Source: a virus
Lineage: Duplodnaviria > Heunggongvirae > Uroviricota > Caudoviricetes
Strand: one strand, 5' to 3'
IMG/VR virus record: IMGVR_UViG_2660238061_000004
Length of the DNA: 26,702 bases
The notes below the pieces were generated by a model. It was not told the origin of the DNA and did no database searches. It saw nothing but the letters and a program-made list of their open reading frames with translations. How positions within the stretch are numbered: position 1 is the stretch's first letter; each line of letters starts with the position of its first letter. Shown piece after piece: positions 11,548 to 20,188 of the stretch. A program made the translations under genes and the position numbers.

Positions 11548-11754
11548 TCACCCCCAGACCTTCTGACGGAGTGACCGCGGCGTACGTTCCTGCCGGTGCG
11601 CCTCCGGCAGCCGGGCGCTGACGGTCCAGGTGACGTAATCGGGATTCAGGCTTCGCTCTACCTTCACGCCGCGGCGCCGGTATTCCGCCATGAGCTCGTC
11701 GGCCTGCTGCGTGGTGCACTCGGTGTGCTGGAACCATGTTTCTTTCATCGGCAT
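11548..11754 (-). CDS. hypothetical nin-region protein
   Basis: 68-69 aa ORF (MPMKETWFQHTECTTQQADELMAEYRRRG...) tightly packed between the DUF1367-like gene and the ybcO-like gene. Confidence 0.45.
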   Translation of the reverse strand: MPMKETWFQHTECTTQQADELMAEYRRRGVKVERSLNPDYVTWTVSARLPEAHRQERTPRSLRQKVWG

Positions 11755-12353
11755 CACCCCACGAAGCTCATGAGCTGCGCAGCGGCATTATCCGCGTCGC
11801 TACGGCTCTTGAATGCCCTGGACAGGATCCAACGCCACAGAACATCGAGTGCGGCCCTGTAGAGTTGCTGGAACTCGGTTTCGTCCATATTGGCGAAGGC
11901 GATGCTGCGGGGGTGTTTGCGGAGGGTGCCGTCAGGCAGCTGTATCGCGTCGTAGTGGCCGGATTCGATGGTTACCCAGGCGCGGTAGGCGTCGAATGAC
12001 TTGCAGGCGCTGATGCTGCCCGTGCGCTTATCAGCGATGCGCTCGAGATATTGCTCAGCGGCATCCAGCAGCGCCCCTTCGTTCCCGCCGTAGGAGGCCA
12101 GAAATCTGGCATAGCCGGTCACCAGCTTGCGTTCGTTGGAAGAGATCGCCCCGCCGGTTGGCTCCCAGTATTCGAACCCGAGGTTTAAAAGCGCGAAGAA
12201 GCGGCGGTGGAAAGCCGGATTGCGGACCTGTTTGAAGTCGGCTACCAGCACGGCGCCGAGTTTGATTTTTGATTGCAGAATATCGCTGGTCTCCGGCGTC
12301 GCGGGGATCAGGATTCCTGATGACTGCTTGATGAGTTGTAGTTCGTGCGCCAT
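11754..12353 (-). CDS. conserved phage protein, DUF1367-like
   Basis: 199-aa ORF (MAHELQLIKQSSGILIPATPETSDILQ...); size and position match the roughly 200-aa DUF1367 proteins of lambdoid nin regions, from memory. Confidence 0.5.
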   Translation of the reverse strand: MAHELQLIKQSSGILIPATPETSDILQSKIKLGAVLVADFKQVRNPAFHRRFFALLNLGFEYWEPTGGAISSNERKLVTGYARFLASYGGNEGALLDAAEQYLERIADKRTGSISACKSFDAYRAWVTIESGHYDAIQLPDGTLRKHPRSIAFANMDETEFQQLYRAALDVLWRWILSRAFKSRSDADNAAAQLMSFVG

Positions 12354-12387: not shown

Positions 12388-12636
12388 TCAGACCGTTGAT
12401 TTCATATTATCAGAAGGTTGGGTTACCCGGTAGCCGAGACGGTTAATAAACTGCATAAAACCATTAGGAGTAAAGACCTCTTCATCATCCAGCAAAGGCC
12501 GCATAGAAACCATGCCATTGACGCGATAAATTAGATGCCTGCCCGATGAAGGAAAGCTAAACACCACGCAGCCGTCAGACCTTCTTACAATGTCATACCA
12601 GTTGTCTTCTGACGTTTGCAAAGCTGAATCACTCAC
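12388..12636 (-). CDS. small hypothetical protein downstream of the dinI-like gene
   Basis: 82-aa ORF (MSDSALQTSEDNWYDIVRRSDGCVVF...); same strand as and 117 bp after the dinI-like gene with no obvious terminator between them. Confidence 0.45.
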   Translation of the reverse strand: MSDSALQTSEDNWYDIVRRSDGCVVFSFPSSGRHLIYRVNGMVSMRPLLDDEEVFTPNGFMQFINRLGYRVTQPSDNMKSTV

Positions 12637-12753
12637 ATTTATGTTCTCCCTTCGAGCGACTAACAGACGCGATTAAAGATTGTCGGCAGCAGCATCAGAG
12701 GGTTACGCAAATTGCGGTATTCTGAAAAATGCGCGCCAGCCTTAAGCGCAATT

Positions 12754-12987
12754 CTAATAAAACCAGTCGTCAGCGCTTTCCCAGGTATCCTGGAGGATTG
12801 ATTCAATTTTCTTTTTATCGTCCTTGTCACCACCAAAAACACTTAACCCATCGGCCCCGGCACGGCGGATTGTGAGCCTGCAATTGTCATAGTGATCATT
12901 CAGGCGCTTAAGCAGTTCTTTCTCCAGTGCTGGTACTGCGCCTTTAGGAAGTTCTTTCATGCGATCAATGGTTAATTCAACTTTCAT
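12754..12987 (-). CDS. dinI: DinI-family protein
   Basis: 77 aa from the internal ATG (MKVELTIDRMKELPKGAVPALEKEL...ILQDTWESADDWFY) with the DinI C-terminal signature; GGGGG SD upstream; LexA box about 20 bp upstream. Confidence 0.8.
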   Translation of the reverse strand: MKVELTIDRMKELPKGAVPALEKELLKRLNDHYDNCRLTIRRAGADGLSVFGGDKDDKKKIESILQDTWESADDWFY

Positions 12988-13005: not shown

Positions 13006-13050
13006 TACTGTGTTTTTATACAGTATACCTATGCGCGGAAATGATCAACG
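13006..13050 (-). promoter_or_regulatory. SOS box (LexA operator) overlapping the -10 of the dinI-like promoter
   Basis: TACTGTGTTTTTATACAGTA at 13006..13025 fits CTGT-N8-ACAG; on the minus strand TATACT overlaps the box and TTGATC lies about 15-16 bp upstream. Confidence 0.65.
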
Positions 13051-13094: not shown

Positions 13095-13117
13095 GAAAAC
13101 CCGCCGTAGCGGGTTGA
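13095..13117 (-). terminator. rho-independent terminator for minus-strand transcription, left boundary of the AT-rich island
   Basis: aacccgc-cgta-gcgggtt perfect stem preceded by an A-run on plus (T-run on minus). Confidence 0.5.
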
Positions 13118-13478: not shown

Positions 13479-14042
13479 TTGAAGCGAGTAGAGCGCGATT
13501 TTATCTGTCTGTTTAATTGTGTGTGGTATCAAGATTTCCCTGTGTTCAAAGGTGAATATATCAACCGTTCCAACTGGACCATTCATGTTGGCCTGGTCAT
13601 GCGCGAGTGTGCAAAGTTAATGGGCGCAAGAACATTTTTTGAACAAGGCGGGCGTACCGATGCGGTCCTACAATATCCAGACAATCAAATTTTAACCTAT
13701 GTTGAGTGGGAGTATAATCAGGCAGACAGAGATAGCGTTAACGAGTTAGACAAACTGCTTGAAAAAAACGACAAGTGCTATTTCTCCACATTCATCTCAT
13801 ATTGTCAGCATGAAAACATCAATATTGTTATTGAAAAAGCAAGTAGAATATGGAGTGAAGCAAGCAGGCCTTTGATTTTTTTTCTTATCACCTATGAGCC
13901 TCAAACGAAAAAACGCCGCCATTTTTTAGAACTCAGAACTTATTTTTTCTCAAACGGCAAAAGAAAACTAGTTCGCAAACAACCTGCGCTTCCATGGGAT
14001 ATTGAGCAACGAAAATACAATGTCGAAGAAGATGCAGGATAG
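13479..14042 (+). CDS. orphan 187-aa protein, AT-rich, function unknown
   Basis: TTG start with strong GGGGGGAGG SD 3-4 nt upstream; roughly 40 percent GC by eye versus a GC-richer backbone; opposite strand to the surrounding phage genes. Confidence 0.5.
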   Translation: MKRVERDFICLFNCVWYQDFPVFKGEYINRSNWTIHVGLVMRECAKLMGARTFFEQGGRTDAVLQYPDNQILTYVEWEYNQADRDSVNELDKLLEKNDKCYFSTFISYCQHENINIVIEKASRIWSEASRPLIFFLITYEPQTKKRRHFLELRTYFFSNGKRKLVRKQPALPWDIEQRKYNVEEDAG

Positions 14043-17831: not shown

Positions 17832-18389
17832 TCATAGCGCACCACCCAGCATCGTTGTAACCATCGCCATAATGGGCGCCACAGAATCAGGTCCGTCCAG
17901 GTAGAGCTTGGCTACGATGCTCTCGCTGATTTCCTTCATCCGTTCGTGTCTGGGGGCTTTGAGGACGACAGCCTGTATCGCCTCAGCGTCTTCTTTCACC
18001 GACCTGGCGACACGAACCGCAAAGCAGTCGTGCTTAATCACGCGATCCCGGTACGCCAGCGGCAGAACCGAAATTATTACCGGCGCCAGCTGCTCGACGT
18101 TCGCCCGGTAGGCCGGTGATTTCTCGTGGTTGTCCAGCCAGCGAAACAGCTTCACGTTCCACACATCGGCGCTGCCGGTCATGTCAATGCTGTCAAGCTC
18201 GGCCTGTTCGGCAGCCTCTTTAATCGCCAGAGCGACCGCCACGCGGCCCTCTGCCGCCGCCCAGGCGCGGACGGCAGAACAGATAGCCCGGTGATCGACC
18301 GGCTGGCCTTCAGCCTCACTGTGTTGATACTGGAATTTCAGGTGCTCTGATGGCGCTCTGTTATTCTGTTGAAAAGAAAGTGTTTGCAT
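17832..18389 (-). CDS. hypothetical early-region protein in the cII position
   Basis: 185-aa ORF between the cro-like gene and O; no family recognised. Confidence 0.4.
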   Translation of the reverse strand: MQTLSFQQNNRAPSEHLKFQYQHSEAEGQPVDHRAICSAVRAWAAAEGRVAVALAIKEAAEQAELDSIDMTGSADVWNVKLFRWLDNHEKSPAYRANVEQLAPVIISVLPLAYRDRVIKHDCFAVRVARSVKEDAEAIQAVVLKAPRHERMKEISESIVAKLYLDGPDSVAPIMAMVTTMLGGAL

Positions 18390-18400
18390 TGTCAGTGCTC

Positions 18401-18619
18401 CTACTTTGGTAATCCGTCAGTGGGATTTGGATAGAGATCAGGGCGCAGCTCGTGGGGGGTTACGCCTGTCATTTTGAAAATCGGGAAGATATAGCTTGGC
18501 GGGACGATCCCTTGGTCACGATTCTTCCAATGACTTACAGACATACTCGTCACACCAAGCGCGATGCTGAGCTTTCTGGCAGAGCCAGCGGCTTTAATTG
18601 CTTTATCGAGTGCGGACAT
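18401..18619 (-). CDS. Cro-like HTH regulator
   Basis: 72 aa; HTH SARKLSIALGVTSMSVSHWKNR; AGGAGA SD; divergent from the repressor gene. Confidence 0.7.
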   Translation of the reverse strand: MSALDKAIKAAGSARKLSIALGVTSMSVSHWKNRDQGIVPPSYIFPIFKMTGVTPHELRPDLYPNPTDGLPK

Positions 18620-18648
18620 GTGCTTCTCCTGCTTATTGATAGCAGAAG

Positions 18649-18711
18649 TAAACCACAGATTTATACTTCATGCAAACTTTGGATTTATTGCGTGCATAAA
18701 CCAAATATTTA
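18649..18711. promoter_or_regulatory. right operator region: three related operator sites about 24 bp apart, overlapping divergent promoters
   Basis: TAAACCACAGATTTA (18649), AAACTTTGGATTTA (18673), TAAACCAAATATTTA (18697); TTGCGT-16 nt-TACAAT precedes the repressor ATG by about 6 nt, implying a near-leaderless transcript. Confidence 0.5.
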
Positions 18712-18721
18712 CAATGACCAT

Positions 18722-19111
18722 ATGAGAAAAGAAGAACCCAACCTCGTTCTGGTGGAGCGCCTTACTGAGATCACTGATCGCGGCGTTACCAAAGCAGACA
18801 TGGCAAGAATAGCTGGAGTCACCCCTCAGGCCGTAAACGGCTGGTTCAAAAAAGGCGTGATTAGTAAGAAATCGGCACTGGCCATAGCCGACGCTGTTGG
18901 TATTTCTGTCGCCTGGCTACTCGGTGAAGACGTTGGGGAGAAAGACGGTCTCAAACCGGACGAACAGCGTTTGCTCGAGCTCTACCGCCAGTTACCGGAA
19001 GAAGAGCAGCAGAACATGCTCCGCATTTTTGCGCTTCGCCTGAAAGAGTTAGATGAGCTGTACGAGAAGTACATGAAGGGTCGGATTCGATCGCAAGGTG
19101 AGCAAACCTAA
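18722..19111 (+). CDS. CI-like phage repressor (XRE HTH) without a peptidase domain
   Basis: 129 aa from ATG 18722; HTH MARIAGVTPQAVNGWFKKG; short C-terminal helical region; track ORF 18452..19111 has a spurious N-terminal extension overlapping cro. Confidence 0.65.
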   Translation: MRKEEPNLVLVERLTEITDRGVTKADMARIAGVTPQAVNGWFKKGVISKKSALAIADAVGISVAWLLGEDVGEKDGLKPDEQRLLELYRQLPEEEQQNMLRIFALRLKELDELYEKYMKGRIRSQGEQT

Positions 19112-19175
19112 ACCAGTAGTATCTAATTCCATGTAATAAAAATATTTCAAGATTTAATATCTTCTGGAGGATTCG

Positions 19176-19457
19176 GTGTCTAAAGAAACAACCGTCGAAC
19201 TTATGCATCTTAATGATGTAATCGAAGCGAAAAATTTCATCGAGACCAATGCTGACGGTGTCGTAACAATCGGCACACAAAATGCCGGTTACGAAGTTTA
19301 CAATTTTGTGTTCCTGAATAGCAGCCCGATCATCGGTACGGATAATGCGGATATAGTCGTCAAGGGCATGCAGCGAACCAAAGTTGTGTCTGTGACTTTA
19401 AGCAAACAAAAGGCTTATGATTTTTATCAATCCTTAAAAAGTATGTTTGAGGAATAA
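19176..19457 (+). CDS. orphan 93-aa protein, first gene of the rex-position pair
   Basis: GTG start with GGAGGA SD; AT-rich; immediately downstream of the repressor on the same strand. Confidence 0.5.
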   Translation: MSKETTVELMHLNDVIEAKNFIETNADGVVTIGTQNAGYEVYNFVFLNSSPIIGTDNADIVVKGMQRTKVVSVTLSKQKAYDFYQSLKSMFEE

Positions 19458-19463
19458 TAATTG

Positions 19464-19985
19464 ATGGATGCGGCTCAATCATCTCTTGGTGAAGGGAAGT
19501 TATTGATTGCATATTCAGACCATAGCGGAGCTACAGTAGGCTTAGAGTTTTCATCAGTAGCTTCGAGCCAAGCAACCTTCCTTATGGGTGCTTGTAGTTT
19601 TGCCGCTTCGGATAAACAAAAACGGATTGTCACATCAGTTGCTATGGATGATACTGAAATCATTCATACGTCAACTGAAGATGGAGGTGACGACATGGAA
19701 AAGAGATTGGCTATTCTTGAGGTTGAAGTTGCCCACATCAAGAAAGATGTTGCCGAGATAAAAAACACAGTTTCAAAAGTTGATACGACAGTGAATTCAC
19801 TGGACAAAAATATGGCTGTAGTTTTGGAGAGGCTGTCTAGTATCAAAGAGTCTGTAGACAAAAAGCCCTCATCAGACACAGTGGACAAGAAAATCTCTGA
19901 TGCTAAATTGGCGATTCTCTTAGGTGTCCCTGCGATTATCGCCATTGGTACAGGGCTGTACAAAGCTTTTATGCACTTCTTTTAG
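19464..19985 (+). CDS. orphan 173-aa protein with coiled-coil and C-terminal membrane anchor, second gene of the pair
   Basis: ATG 19464 with GAGGAA SD; heptad-like middle (MEKRLAILEVEVAHIKKDVAEIKNTV...); hydrophobic C-terminus LAILLGVPAIIAIGTGLYKAF. Confidence 0.55.
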   Translation: MDAAQSSLGEGKLLIAYSDHSGATVGLEFSSVASSQATFLMGACSFAASDKQKRIVTSVAMDDTEIIHTSTEDGGDDMEKRLAILEVEVAHIKKDVAEIKNTVSKVDTTVNSLDKNMAVVLERLSSIKESVDKKPSSDTVDKKISDAKLAILLGVPAIIAIGTGLYKAFMHFF

Positions 19986-20058
19986 TCAGATTTGGTCAAT
20001 ACGCCTGAGTTATAAGGCTCTCAGCTACTAACTCTGTCGCCTTCCCCGAACCTTCTCA

Positions 20059-20085
20059 TCCCGACCACGCGTCGGGATTTTTTTT
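20059..20085 (+). terminator. rho-independent terminator ending the repressor operon
   Basis: tcccgac-cacgc-gtcggga perfect stem followed by eight T. Confidence 0.65.
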
Positions 20086-20124
20086 GCCTGCGATTCTGCA
20101 GACGTGTCACAAAACCCAGCCACA

Positions 20125-20188
20125 TAAACCTCAGATTTACAATTAACACTAACCTTAAGTTGACACATATATAAACCAGTGATTTAAT
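20125..20188 (+). promoter_or_regulatory. pL-like early promoter with operator repeats
   Basis: TTGACA (20160..20165), 17-nt spacer, TTTAAT (20183..20188); operator-like TAAACCTCAGATTTA (20125) and TAAACCAGTGATTTA (20172) match the right-operator sites. Confidence 0.55.

Follow-up and report, generated by a model that had tools for sequence, protein, structure and literature searches.

A short, probably leaderless repressor of the Gifsy type and its putative LexA-controlled antirepressor in a lambda-like Escherichia coli prophage

The gene at positions 18722 to 19111 probably encodes the repressor that maintains lysogeny in a lambda-like prophage of E. coli. It is predicted to be a short, non-cleavable repressor of the GfoR type, to be translated from a leaderless mRNA, and to be released by a GfoA homologue under LexA control. 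A probability of about 0.82 is assigned to this reading. Judged by its sequence, the protein is an uncharacterised member of the Gifsy-type non-cleavable repressors. The original prediction made from this DNA is correct, but what it describes is ordinary, as such repressors, their induction by antirepressors and the leaderless layout have all been described before. The window, i.e., the whole stretch of DNA that was analysed, is 26,702 nucleotides long. Its immunity region recurs with 100% identity in chromosomal prophages of 13 or more complete E. coli genomes. One of these is ECCWS199, in which the prophage adjoins kch; E. coli KL53 also has an identical immunity region. The ECCWS199 prophage is identical at the immunity region and differs elsewhere, for example in carrying tRNA genes, of which the window has none; its coordinates were used only within 18300-19500. 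The gene under study is the following.

18722..19111, plus strand: repressor gene, GfoR-type, 129 aa, XRE HTH and two-helix C-terminal domain (ORF list, Pfam, AlphaFold2, identity to GfoR)

The repressor ORF runs from an ATG at 18722 to a TAA at 19109-19111. Pfam finds HTH_3 at residues 20-66, together with weaker HTH families and nothing else, and Peptidase_S24 has no match in the protein at E<=0.1. The AlphaFold2 model (mean pLDDT 84) is all-helical and contains no beta strands. The HTH domain is formed by helices 8-19, 24-31, 35-44, 49-59, and 63-67, and is followed by a linker (residues 68-78, GEDVGEKDGLK) and two further helices, 79-89 and 93-126. A Foldseek search of the PDB with this model returned only HTH domains, e.g., those of P22 c2, the 434 repressor, the TP901-1 CI N-terminal domain, and SinR, and no peptidase fold was among the matches. 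The linker lacks an Ala-Gly or Cys-Gly cleavage site, and the sole Ala-Gly of the protein (A31-G32) lies within the HTH. An S24 Ser/Lys dyad domain is likewise absent, S124 being the only Ser beyond residue 68. The ORF, Pfam, and AlphaFold2 therefore agree with the earlier description of a 129-aa CI-like protein that has an XRE HTH, a short helical C-terminus, and no room for an S24 or LexA-like domain. The domain search that had been proposed, and the search of the C-terminus for a peptidase fold or an Ala-Gly/Ser-Lys motif, found neither. The features of a self-cleaving repressor of the lambda CI/LexA (S24) type are absent from this protein. Since there is no peptidase domain, DNA damage would act on the repressor indirectly.

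Among the matches listed from a library of 1.8 billion representatives, full-length relatives of the repressor have approximately 120-146 aa, and most of the longer proteins (approximately 200 aa and over) align mainly via the HTH, some of them in several stretches. The HTH is the only Pfam domain in all of the best 120 close homologues. A PDB sequence search and Foldseek found no solved structure that covers the C-terminal domain. The polyubiquitin matches in the PDB sequence search were rejected as spurious, being summed sub-threshold repeats of one short motif (GLKPDEQRL vs GIPPDQQRL). PADLOC gave nothing credible for the repressor.

Three small repressors, GfoR, GftR, and GfhR, are encoded by the Gifsy prophages of Salmonella; induction leaves them uncleaved, and small antirepressors inactivate them (Lemire, Figueroa-Bossi & Bossi 2011, PMC3121763). 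The sequences of GfoR and GfoA were obtained by using the published primers (table of Lemire et al.) as exact DNA patterns, which led to Gifsy-1-type loci in IMG/VR. GfoR (131 aa) and the window repressor are 62% identical over 117 aa (E 2e-54), and the primer-derived C-terminus of GfoR, EKYMKGRIR, matches the window at 19064-19090. Both proteins, of about 130 aa, have an HTH and a helical C-terminus without an S24 domain; in both genes, a -10 hexamer and 6 nt precede the ATG. The DNA-binding domains of the two proteins are 49% identical and their C-terminal domains 69%. Across immunity groups, the mean pairwise identity is also higher in the C-terminal domain (63%) than in the DNA-binding domain (56%). 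The operators differ as well, being TAAACC-N3-GATTTA in the window and TAAACA-N3-TGTTTA-like in Gifsy-1. The diverged DNA-binding domain and the differing operators suggest that the window repressor forms an immunity group separate from Gifsy-1. In addition, the host of the window prophage is E. coli rather than Salmonella. The primer-derived terminal peptides of GftA, FsoA, and GftR have no match in the window, which narrows the module down to the GfoR/GfoA type.

In the Gifsy prophages, the antirepressor is the second gene of a LexA-controlled dinI-antirepressor-irsA operon at a great distance from the immunity region; a terminator stands before the operon in all three of these prophages (PMC3121763). 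The window contains the following features, in the order in which they would be transcribed.

13098..13115, minus strand: terminator hairpin just upstream of the SOS operon (terminator search)
13006..13025, minus strand: LexA box TACTGTATAAAAACACAGTA, 17/20 to the consensus TACTGT(AT)4ACAGTA (pattern search)
12754..12987, minus strand: dinI homologue, first gene of the SOS operon (Pfam DinI 4e-26)
12388..12636, minus strand: candidate GfoA-type antirepressor gene, 82 aa, GTG start, GGGAGAA Shine-Dalgarno sequence (identity to GfoA)
11754..12353, minus strand: irsA homologue (DUF1367 / NinB-like), third gene of the operon (Pfam DUF1367 6e-93)

The only exact CTGT-N8-ACAG in the 26.7-kb window (13008-13023) lies inside this LexA box. 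The 82-aa ORF is identical to GfoA, also of 82 aa, at 75 positions (91%). Primer-derived peptides place the rest of the operon: the two termini of GfoA match at 12636-12616 and 12441-12409, the N-terminus of irsA (MAHELQLIKQS) is 100% identical at 12353-12321, and the C-terminus of the Gifsy dinI product matches at 12795-12757. By gene content and order, the set of terminator, LexA box, dinI, antirepressor, and irsA matches the published Gifsy operon, with the same layout as in Gifsy-1. The 82-aa protein belongs to no Pfam family, falls in phrog_340 ("unknown function") in PHROGs, and has no credible match in PADLOC. A tblastn search of 50,697 phage genomes found its homologues in 17 records. 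Most of these phages also carry a homologue of the repressor, namely mEp237, SEN34, SW-37, PHB10, three Klebsiella phages, Chris1, SPN3UB, FSL SP-016, and pAEv1818. Every computationally testable feature of a GfoR/GfoA module was found in the window element. The expectation that induction needs a separate factor is supported by the homology to GfoR and by the presence of this antirepressor homologue behind a LexA box.

It is unlikely that the repressor escapes control by the GfoA homologue. The prophage would then be either non-inducible, i.e., cryptic like CP-933P, or its repressor would be removed by a host or ImmA/IrrE-type protease, or by the antirepressor of another prophage acting in trans. 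PaaR2, a repressor with the same architecture, is indeed found in a cryptic prophage reported to be unresponsive to mitomycin C (PMC8630535), and antirepressors can act across prophages (Lemire et al., PMC3121763). However, the terminator, the LexA box, and all three genes of the operon are intact in the window, its antirepressor is nearly identical to a characterised one, and homologues of the two proteins co-occur in phage genomes. No ImmA/M78-type protease gene adjoins the repressor gene, and the peptides of the other Gifsy antirepressors are absent, as noted above. The prophage also carries replication, lysis, packaging, and integrase genes, and an identical repressor is present on 40-kb IMG/VR contigs. 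Control by the GfoA homologue is preferred, in which cognate recognition is assumed, since the N-terminal domain of the repressor is only 49% identical to that of GfoR. Lemire et al. (PMC3121763) observed cross-reactivity between heteroimmune Gifsy repressors, and a better-conserved C-terminal domain combined with a near-identical antirepressor fits the cross-immunity action that they reported.

The second part of the main reading concerns the transcript. A TTGCGT-16-TACAAT promoter had been said to end about 6 nt before the repressor ATG, and the distance is exactly 6 nt (GACCAT).

18688..18715, plus strand: PRM-like promoter, -35 TTGCGT (18688-18693), 16-nt spacer, -10 TACAAT (18710-18715) (sequence and conservation)

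This promoter agrees with the consensus at 8/12 positions. The threshold of the promoter scan is 9/12, and candidates without A at position 2 of the hexamer also go unreported. The scan reported nothing at PRM, PR, PL, or the dinI operon, so every promoter assignment given here is based on comparison and position. At 8/12, the repressor promoter is not significant by itself, and it is conservation that lifts it above chance.

The comparison set consisted of 400 IMG/VR loci (five queries) and seven phage genomes, and an ATG stood at the aligned start in 396 cases. These 396 loci gave 224 unique upstream sequences in six clusters of the N-terminal domain, which correspond to six immunity groups that differ in their operator half-sites. 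All 224 sequences have their best -10-like hexamer 5-8 nt upstream of the ATG, most often with a gap of 6 nt (164 sequences), followed by 8 nt (33), 7 nt (25), and 5 nt (2). In 223 of the 224, there is no Shine-Dalgarno core. Fifty other genes of the prophage and the host neighbourhood served as controls, in which a -10-like hexamer at that distance occurred in 2/50 and a Shine-Dalgarno core in 41/50. In the immunity type of the window (66 unique sequences), the ATG and the TTG of the -35 hexamer are invariant; 63 sequences have TACAAT as their -10 hexamer and the other 3 have TAGAAT. Between this hexamer and the ATG, the gap is always 6 nt long in these 66 relatives and takes 25 different sequences. 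A gap of fixed length and variable sequence behaves as a promoter discriminator, not as coding sequence. The same spacing of -10, 6 nt, and ATG is found in gfoR (TAGAAT), lambda cI (TAGATT), and paaR2 (GATAAT).

For paaR2 of CP-933P, 5' RACE maps the 5' end of the mRNA to the start codon, and protein sequencing together with mass spectrometry confirmed the N-terminus (Jurenas et al. 2021, PMC8630535). The promoter of gfhR was placed between two in-frame AUGs (Lemire et al., PMC3121763). In the literature on the Gifsy repressors, no mapped 5' end and no description as "leaderless" was found. Taken with the geometry shared with lambda cI and paaR2, the comparison supports the near-leaderless transcript that had been proposed by analogy with lambda pRM/cI. 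From the position and conservation of the -10 hexamer, transcription of the repressor gene very probably starts on the A at 18722 or no more than 1-2 nt from it. An mRNA that starts at its own AUG would be translated without a Shine-Dalgarno sequence. The -10 hexamer overlaps an operator, so part of the conservation of the promoter could reflect binding of the repressor rather than of RNA polymerase. The comparison shows an apparently leaderless PRM layout that is kept across at least six immunity groups of such repressors.

The annotated start is different. RefSeq (PGAP) calls a 139-aa repressor from GTG 18692, a codon inside the -35 hexamer, and relatives of the repressor are called at 127, 137, or 161 aa in databases. 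The frame is open upstream to 18452, with GTG codons at 18692 and 18620. An N-terminally extended form, GfhR*, was also seen in Gifsy-3 after mitomycin C (Lemire et al., PMC3121763). On this basis, the repressor could start at GTG 18692 or further upstream, on a leadered transcript from a promoter nearer the Cro-like gene, and TTGCGT/TACAAT would be coincidental or would serve only as an operator. This reading is unlikely. In 11 of the 66 relatives of the same type, a non-start codon stands in the place of the GTG, and 20 of the 66 have an in-frame stop within 34 codons upstream. In the other immunity groups, a stop lies 1 codon upstream, or the extension contains no start codon. GTG 18692 is not preceded by a Shine-Dalgarno sequence, the upstream variation follows the pattern of operators and promoters (conserved blocks and a variable 6-mer) and not that of codons, and uninduced lysogens make the short form (Lemire et al., PMC3121763). 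The non-start codons and upstream stops in relatives indicate that the 129-aa form is the conserved product, and the GTG start in RefSeq is probably wrong. As an unlikely addition, the extension might serve a PRE-type transcript activated by CII/YdaT, which would give a second, N-terminally extended isoform of the repressor like the unexplained GfhR*. If true, this isoform would have a function of its own, either while lysogeny is established or during recovery from an aborted induction.

With the short, leaderless form preferred, the surroundings of the gene resemble those of lambda cI. The gene order is an O-like replication gene, the CII-like gene, the Cro-like gene, a 102-bp gap, and the repressor gene on the opposite strand.

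17832..18389, minus strand: CII-like gene, YdaT family, 185 aa (Pfam YdaT_toxin 1.5e-17; phrog_163, CII-like activator, 3e-40)
18401..18619, minus strand: Cro-like gene, YdaS family, 72 aa, AGGAGAA Shine-Dalgarno sequence (Pfam YdaS_toxin 1.4e-13; phrog_35)
18647..18675, minus strand: PR-like promoter of the Cro-like gene, -35 TTGCAT (18675-18670), 17-nt spacer, TGgTTTACT (hexamer 18652-18647) (by eye, unreported by the scan)
18649..18663, no strand assigned: predicted operator O1, TAAACCACAGATTTA, centre -66 from the ATG, overlapping the -10 region of the Cro-side promoter (repeat family D1, pattern search)
18673..18687, no strand assigned: predicted operator O2, CAAACTTTGGATTTA, weaker, centre -42, abutting the repressor -35 (by eye, in 24-bp register with O1 and O3)
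18697..18711, no strand assigned: predicted operator O3, TAAACCAAATATTTA, centre -18, overlapping the spacer and -10 of the repressor promoter (repeat and pattern search)
19176..19985, plus strand: two ORFs, one of 93 aa and one of 174 aa with a coiled coil and a hydrophobic C-terminus (phrog_12039 and phrog_12602, function unknown in both)
20058..20088, plus strand: intrinsic terminator closing the repressor operon, 8-bp stem, 5 G-C pairs, T run (terminator search)
20125..20188, plus strand: OL/PL-like region, operators TAAACCTCAGATTTA (20125-20139) and TAAACCAGTGATTTA (20172-20186), TTGACA (20160-20165)-17-TGaTTTAAT (pattern search; promoter by eye)

O1 to O3 are three 15-bp sites with a spacing of 24 bp, all in the gap between the repressor and Cro-like genes. 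The O1 pattern, searched for throughout the window, has 9 matches where 1.5 were expected. The four with one mismatch or none are O1, O3, 20125-20139, and 20172-20186, all of them in OR or OL. In relatives, O1 is near-invariant and the outer positions of O2 are conserved. The operator centres at -66, -42, and -18 compare with -66, -42, and -19 from the cI start for the annotated OR1, OR2, and OR3 of lambda, and the position of the PR-like promoter relative to O1 and O2 matches that of lambda PR. The PL-like promoter, flanked by these last two sites just past the terminator of the repressor operon, reads into the ydaE-recE-recT operon; it was unreported by the scan, its hexamer lacking A at position 2. 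From its operator matches and position, the region 20125..20188 is taken as the OL/PL equivalent. The 93-aa and 174-aa ORFs are probably co-transcribed with the repressor and occupy the position of lambda rexAB; PADLOC found no credible match for either. Two neighbours carry toxin names (YdaS_toxin in Pfam, "toxin YdaT family protein" in RefSeq), but it is very improbable that the gene is part of an accessory regulatory or toxin-antitoxin-like module instead of being the immunity repressor, as YdaS and YdaT were shown to be counterparts of Cro and CII and not a toxin-antitoxin pair (Jurenas et al. 2021, PMC8630535), and the order repressor/Cro-like/CII-like/O/P, the operator layout, and the homology to GfoR put the gene in the cI position.

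Under the preferred reading of an immunity repressor controlled by the GfoA homologue, the switch would work as follows. The HTH of the repressor would bind O1 to O3 between its own gene and the Cro-like and CII-like genes, and probably also two or three similar sites at the downstream PL-like promoter. Occupation of O1 and O2 would shut off the Cro-side promoter. By analogy with lambda and PaaR2, repressor bound at O2, centred at -42, may activate the weak promoter of its own gene; low levels of PaaR2 activate PRM933P (Jurenas et al. 2021, PMC8630535). O3 would repress the repressor promoter at high repressor levels, as in lambda OR. In this way, the repressor would keep PR and PL off and sustain its own leaderless expression. 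Upon DNA damage, cleavage of host LexA stimulated by RecA would free the LexA box of the dinI-gfoA-irsA operon, 5.7 kb away. The GfoA homologue would then be made, presumably bind the repressor and take it off its operators, and lytic transcription would follow.

Several known systems share parts of this design. Lambda has a leaderless cI mRNA, three operators, a repressor gene divergent from Cro and CII, and downstream co-transcribed genes that are followed by OL/PL. In contrast, lambda CI has 237 aa and undergoes self-cleavage on RecA filaments by means of an S24-type C-terminal domain, whereas the window repressor lacks this domain and would need an antirepressor. The PaaR2/YdaS/YdaT region of CP-933P in E. 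coli O157:H7 (PMC8630535) is similar in its short (123 aa), peptidase-less repressor, whose gene diverges from ydaS-ydaT over a gap of about 100 bp, in operators that overlap PR and PRM, in the spacing before the ATG, and in its OL/PL-like sites. It differs in that the paaA2-parE2 toxin-antitoxin pair comes next and CP-933P is cryptic and not inducible by mitomycin C, whereas the window has an intact SOS-antirepressor operon instead. The two repressors are distant in sequence (pairwise BLASTP E 4e-4, 20% identity over 82 aa), and the match falls mostly in the LxxxExxLLxxYxxLPExEQ C-terminal helices.

DicA and Rem of prophage Qin (Ragunathan et al. 2023, PMC10448788) likewise pair a short or non-cleaved repressor with a small antirepressor that inactivates it. 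Against the DicA profile (NCBIfam NF007257), the window repressor scores 34.2 bits with a cut-off of 101, the match spanning 17-133 of 135 profile positions, which makes it a distant relative and not an orthologue. CI and Tum of phage 186 are also such a pair, in which Tum is a fusion of antirepressor and DinI and CI is unrelated in sequence to the window repressor. SinR of Bacillus subtilis (PDB 1b0n) combines an XRE HTH with a short helical C-terminal oligomerisation hook and is bound by a small antagonist, SinI. The likeness to SinR is a structural and functional analogy only, as the rmsd is 11.5 A at full length, no sequence homology was detected, and SinR is not a phage protein.

The practical value of the analysis lies in correcting the start codon of the repressor and in naming the antirepressor. 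Gene callers, including RefSeq, often add a spurious N-terminal extension to such repressors, which runs over their own promoter. The antirepressor family, without a Pfam entry or a function in PHROGs, is an annotation gap. The case confirms that induction by LexA and a small antirepressor, as in the Gifsy prophages, is common in lambdoid prophages of E. coli and other enterobacteria. Induction of this kind is reversible in principle and can act in trans, and therefore it bears on forecasts of how polylysogens will react to antibiotics that damage DNA.

RefSeq/PGAP and other gene callers choose an upstream GTG, TTG or ATG (18692-18721 in the window) as the start of the repressor gene, as seen among the best 120 close homologues (P0001-P0120). 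The annotated forms with an upstream start are 137-139 or 161 amino acids long. Their extra N-terminal residues, for example MHKPNIYNDH, are the predicted operator O3 and the -10 hexamer of the repressor promoter read as protein. Because relatives do not preserve an open frame through the N-terminal extension, the upstream starts probably represent a systematic start-codon error that affects many database entries.

Upstream of the ATG, the frame of the repressor gene continues without a stop through 90 codons (18452-18721), antisense to the Cro-like gene, and this open frame contains the following in-frame codons:

18620, plus strand, in-frame GTG upstream of the repressor ATG
18692, plus strand, in-frame GTG upstream of the repressor ATG

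An N-terminally extended repressor, GfhR*, was found in Gifsy-3 after mitomycin C treatment and was left unexplained (Lemire et al., PMC3121763), and the annotation of phage mEp237 includes a long repressor form of a comparable kind. With low probability, a PRE-like transcript that starts further upstream might also give rise to a minor extended isoform of the repressor.

The Cro-like and CII-like genes (17832-18619, minus strand) are currently named 'toxin YdaS' and 'toxin YdaT' in Pfam and RefSeq. These toxin names were argued to be wrong by Jurenas et al. 2021 (PMC8630535), and the YdaS- and YdaT-family genes of the window occupy the exact positions of cro and cII. On the other side of the repressor gene are two ORFs and an OL/PL-like region:

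19176-19985, plus strand, two ORFs directly 3' of the repressor, in the same position as lambda rexAB
20058-20188, OL/PL-like region, in which a pair of operator copies comes after a strong intrinsic terminator
20125-20139 and 20172-20186, the operator copies, bracketing a promoter-like sequence

The promoter-like sequence between the operator copies, TTGACA-17-TGaTTTAAT, is directed into the ydaE-recE-recT operon. One of the two ORFs encodes a 93-aa product, and the other a 174-aa product that contains a coiled coil and ends in a hydrophobic C-terminus. The two correspond to phrog_12039 and phrog_12602, both of 'unknown function', and PADLOC gave only faint coiled-coil matches for them. Both may be exclusion or conversion genes that are expressed in the lysogen.

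The predicted GfoA-type antirepressor (12388-12636, minus strand) belongs to phrog_340 in PHROGs, labelled 'unknown function', with phrog_1813 as a second match. Pfam has no family for it, and the corresponding gene of the RefSeq neighbour, E. coli ECCWS199, is named hypothetical protein. The family is an annotation gap, despite a function characterised by experiment. Two further features lie in and around the SOS operon:

12732-12750, minus strand, another terminator-like hairpin, weaker than the first, after the stop codon of dinI and before the start of the antirepressor gene
13479-14042, plus strand, a 187-aa ORF just upstream of the operon's terminator

The hairpin might reduce the transcription that continues past it into the antirepressor gene. 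The 187-aa ORF lies on the opposite strand to the late-early genes around it, gave no match in PHROGs and PADLOC searches, and is possibly a moron or an accessory gene.

The immunity region of the window matches that of ECCWS199 exactly, whereas colinearity elsewhere is incomplete. The coordinates are shifted by ~310 nt around dinI, and the nin region of ECCWS199 carries a tRNA-Thr and an odd 92-nt tRNA-Ile, whereas ARAGORN found no tRNA in the window. Such partial colinearity is the mosaicism that lambdoid prophages typically show.
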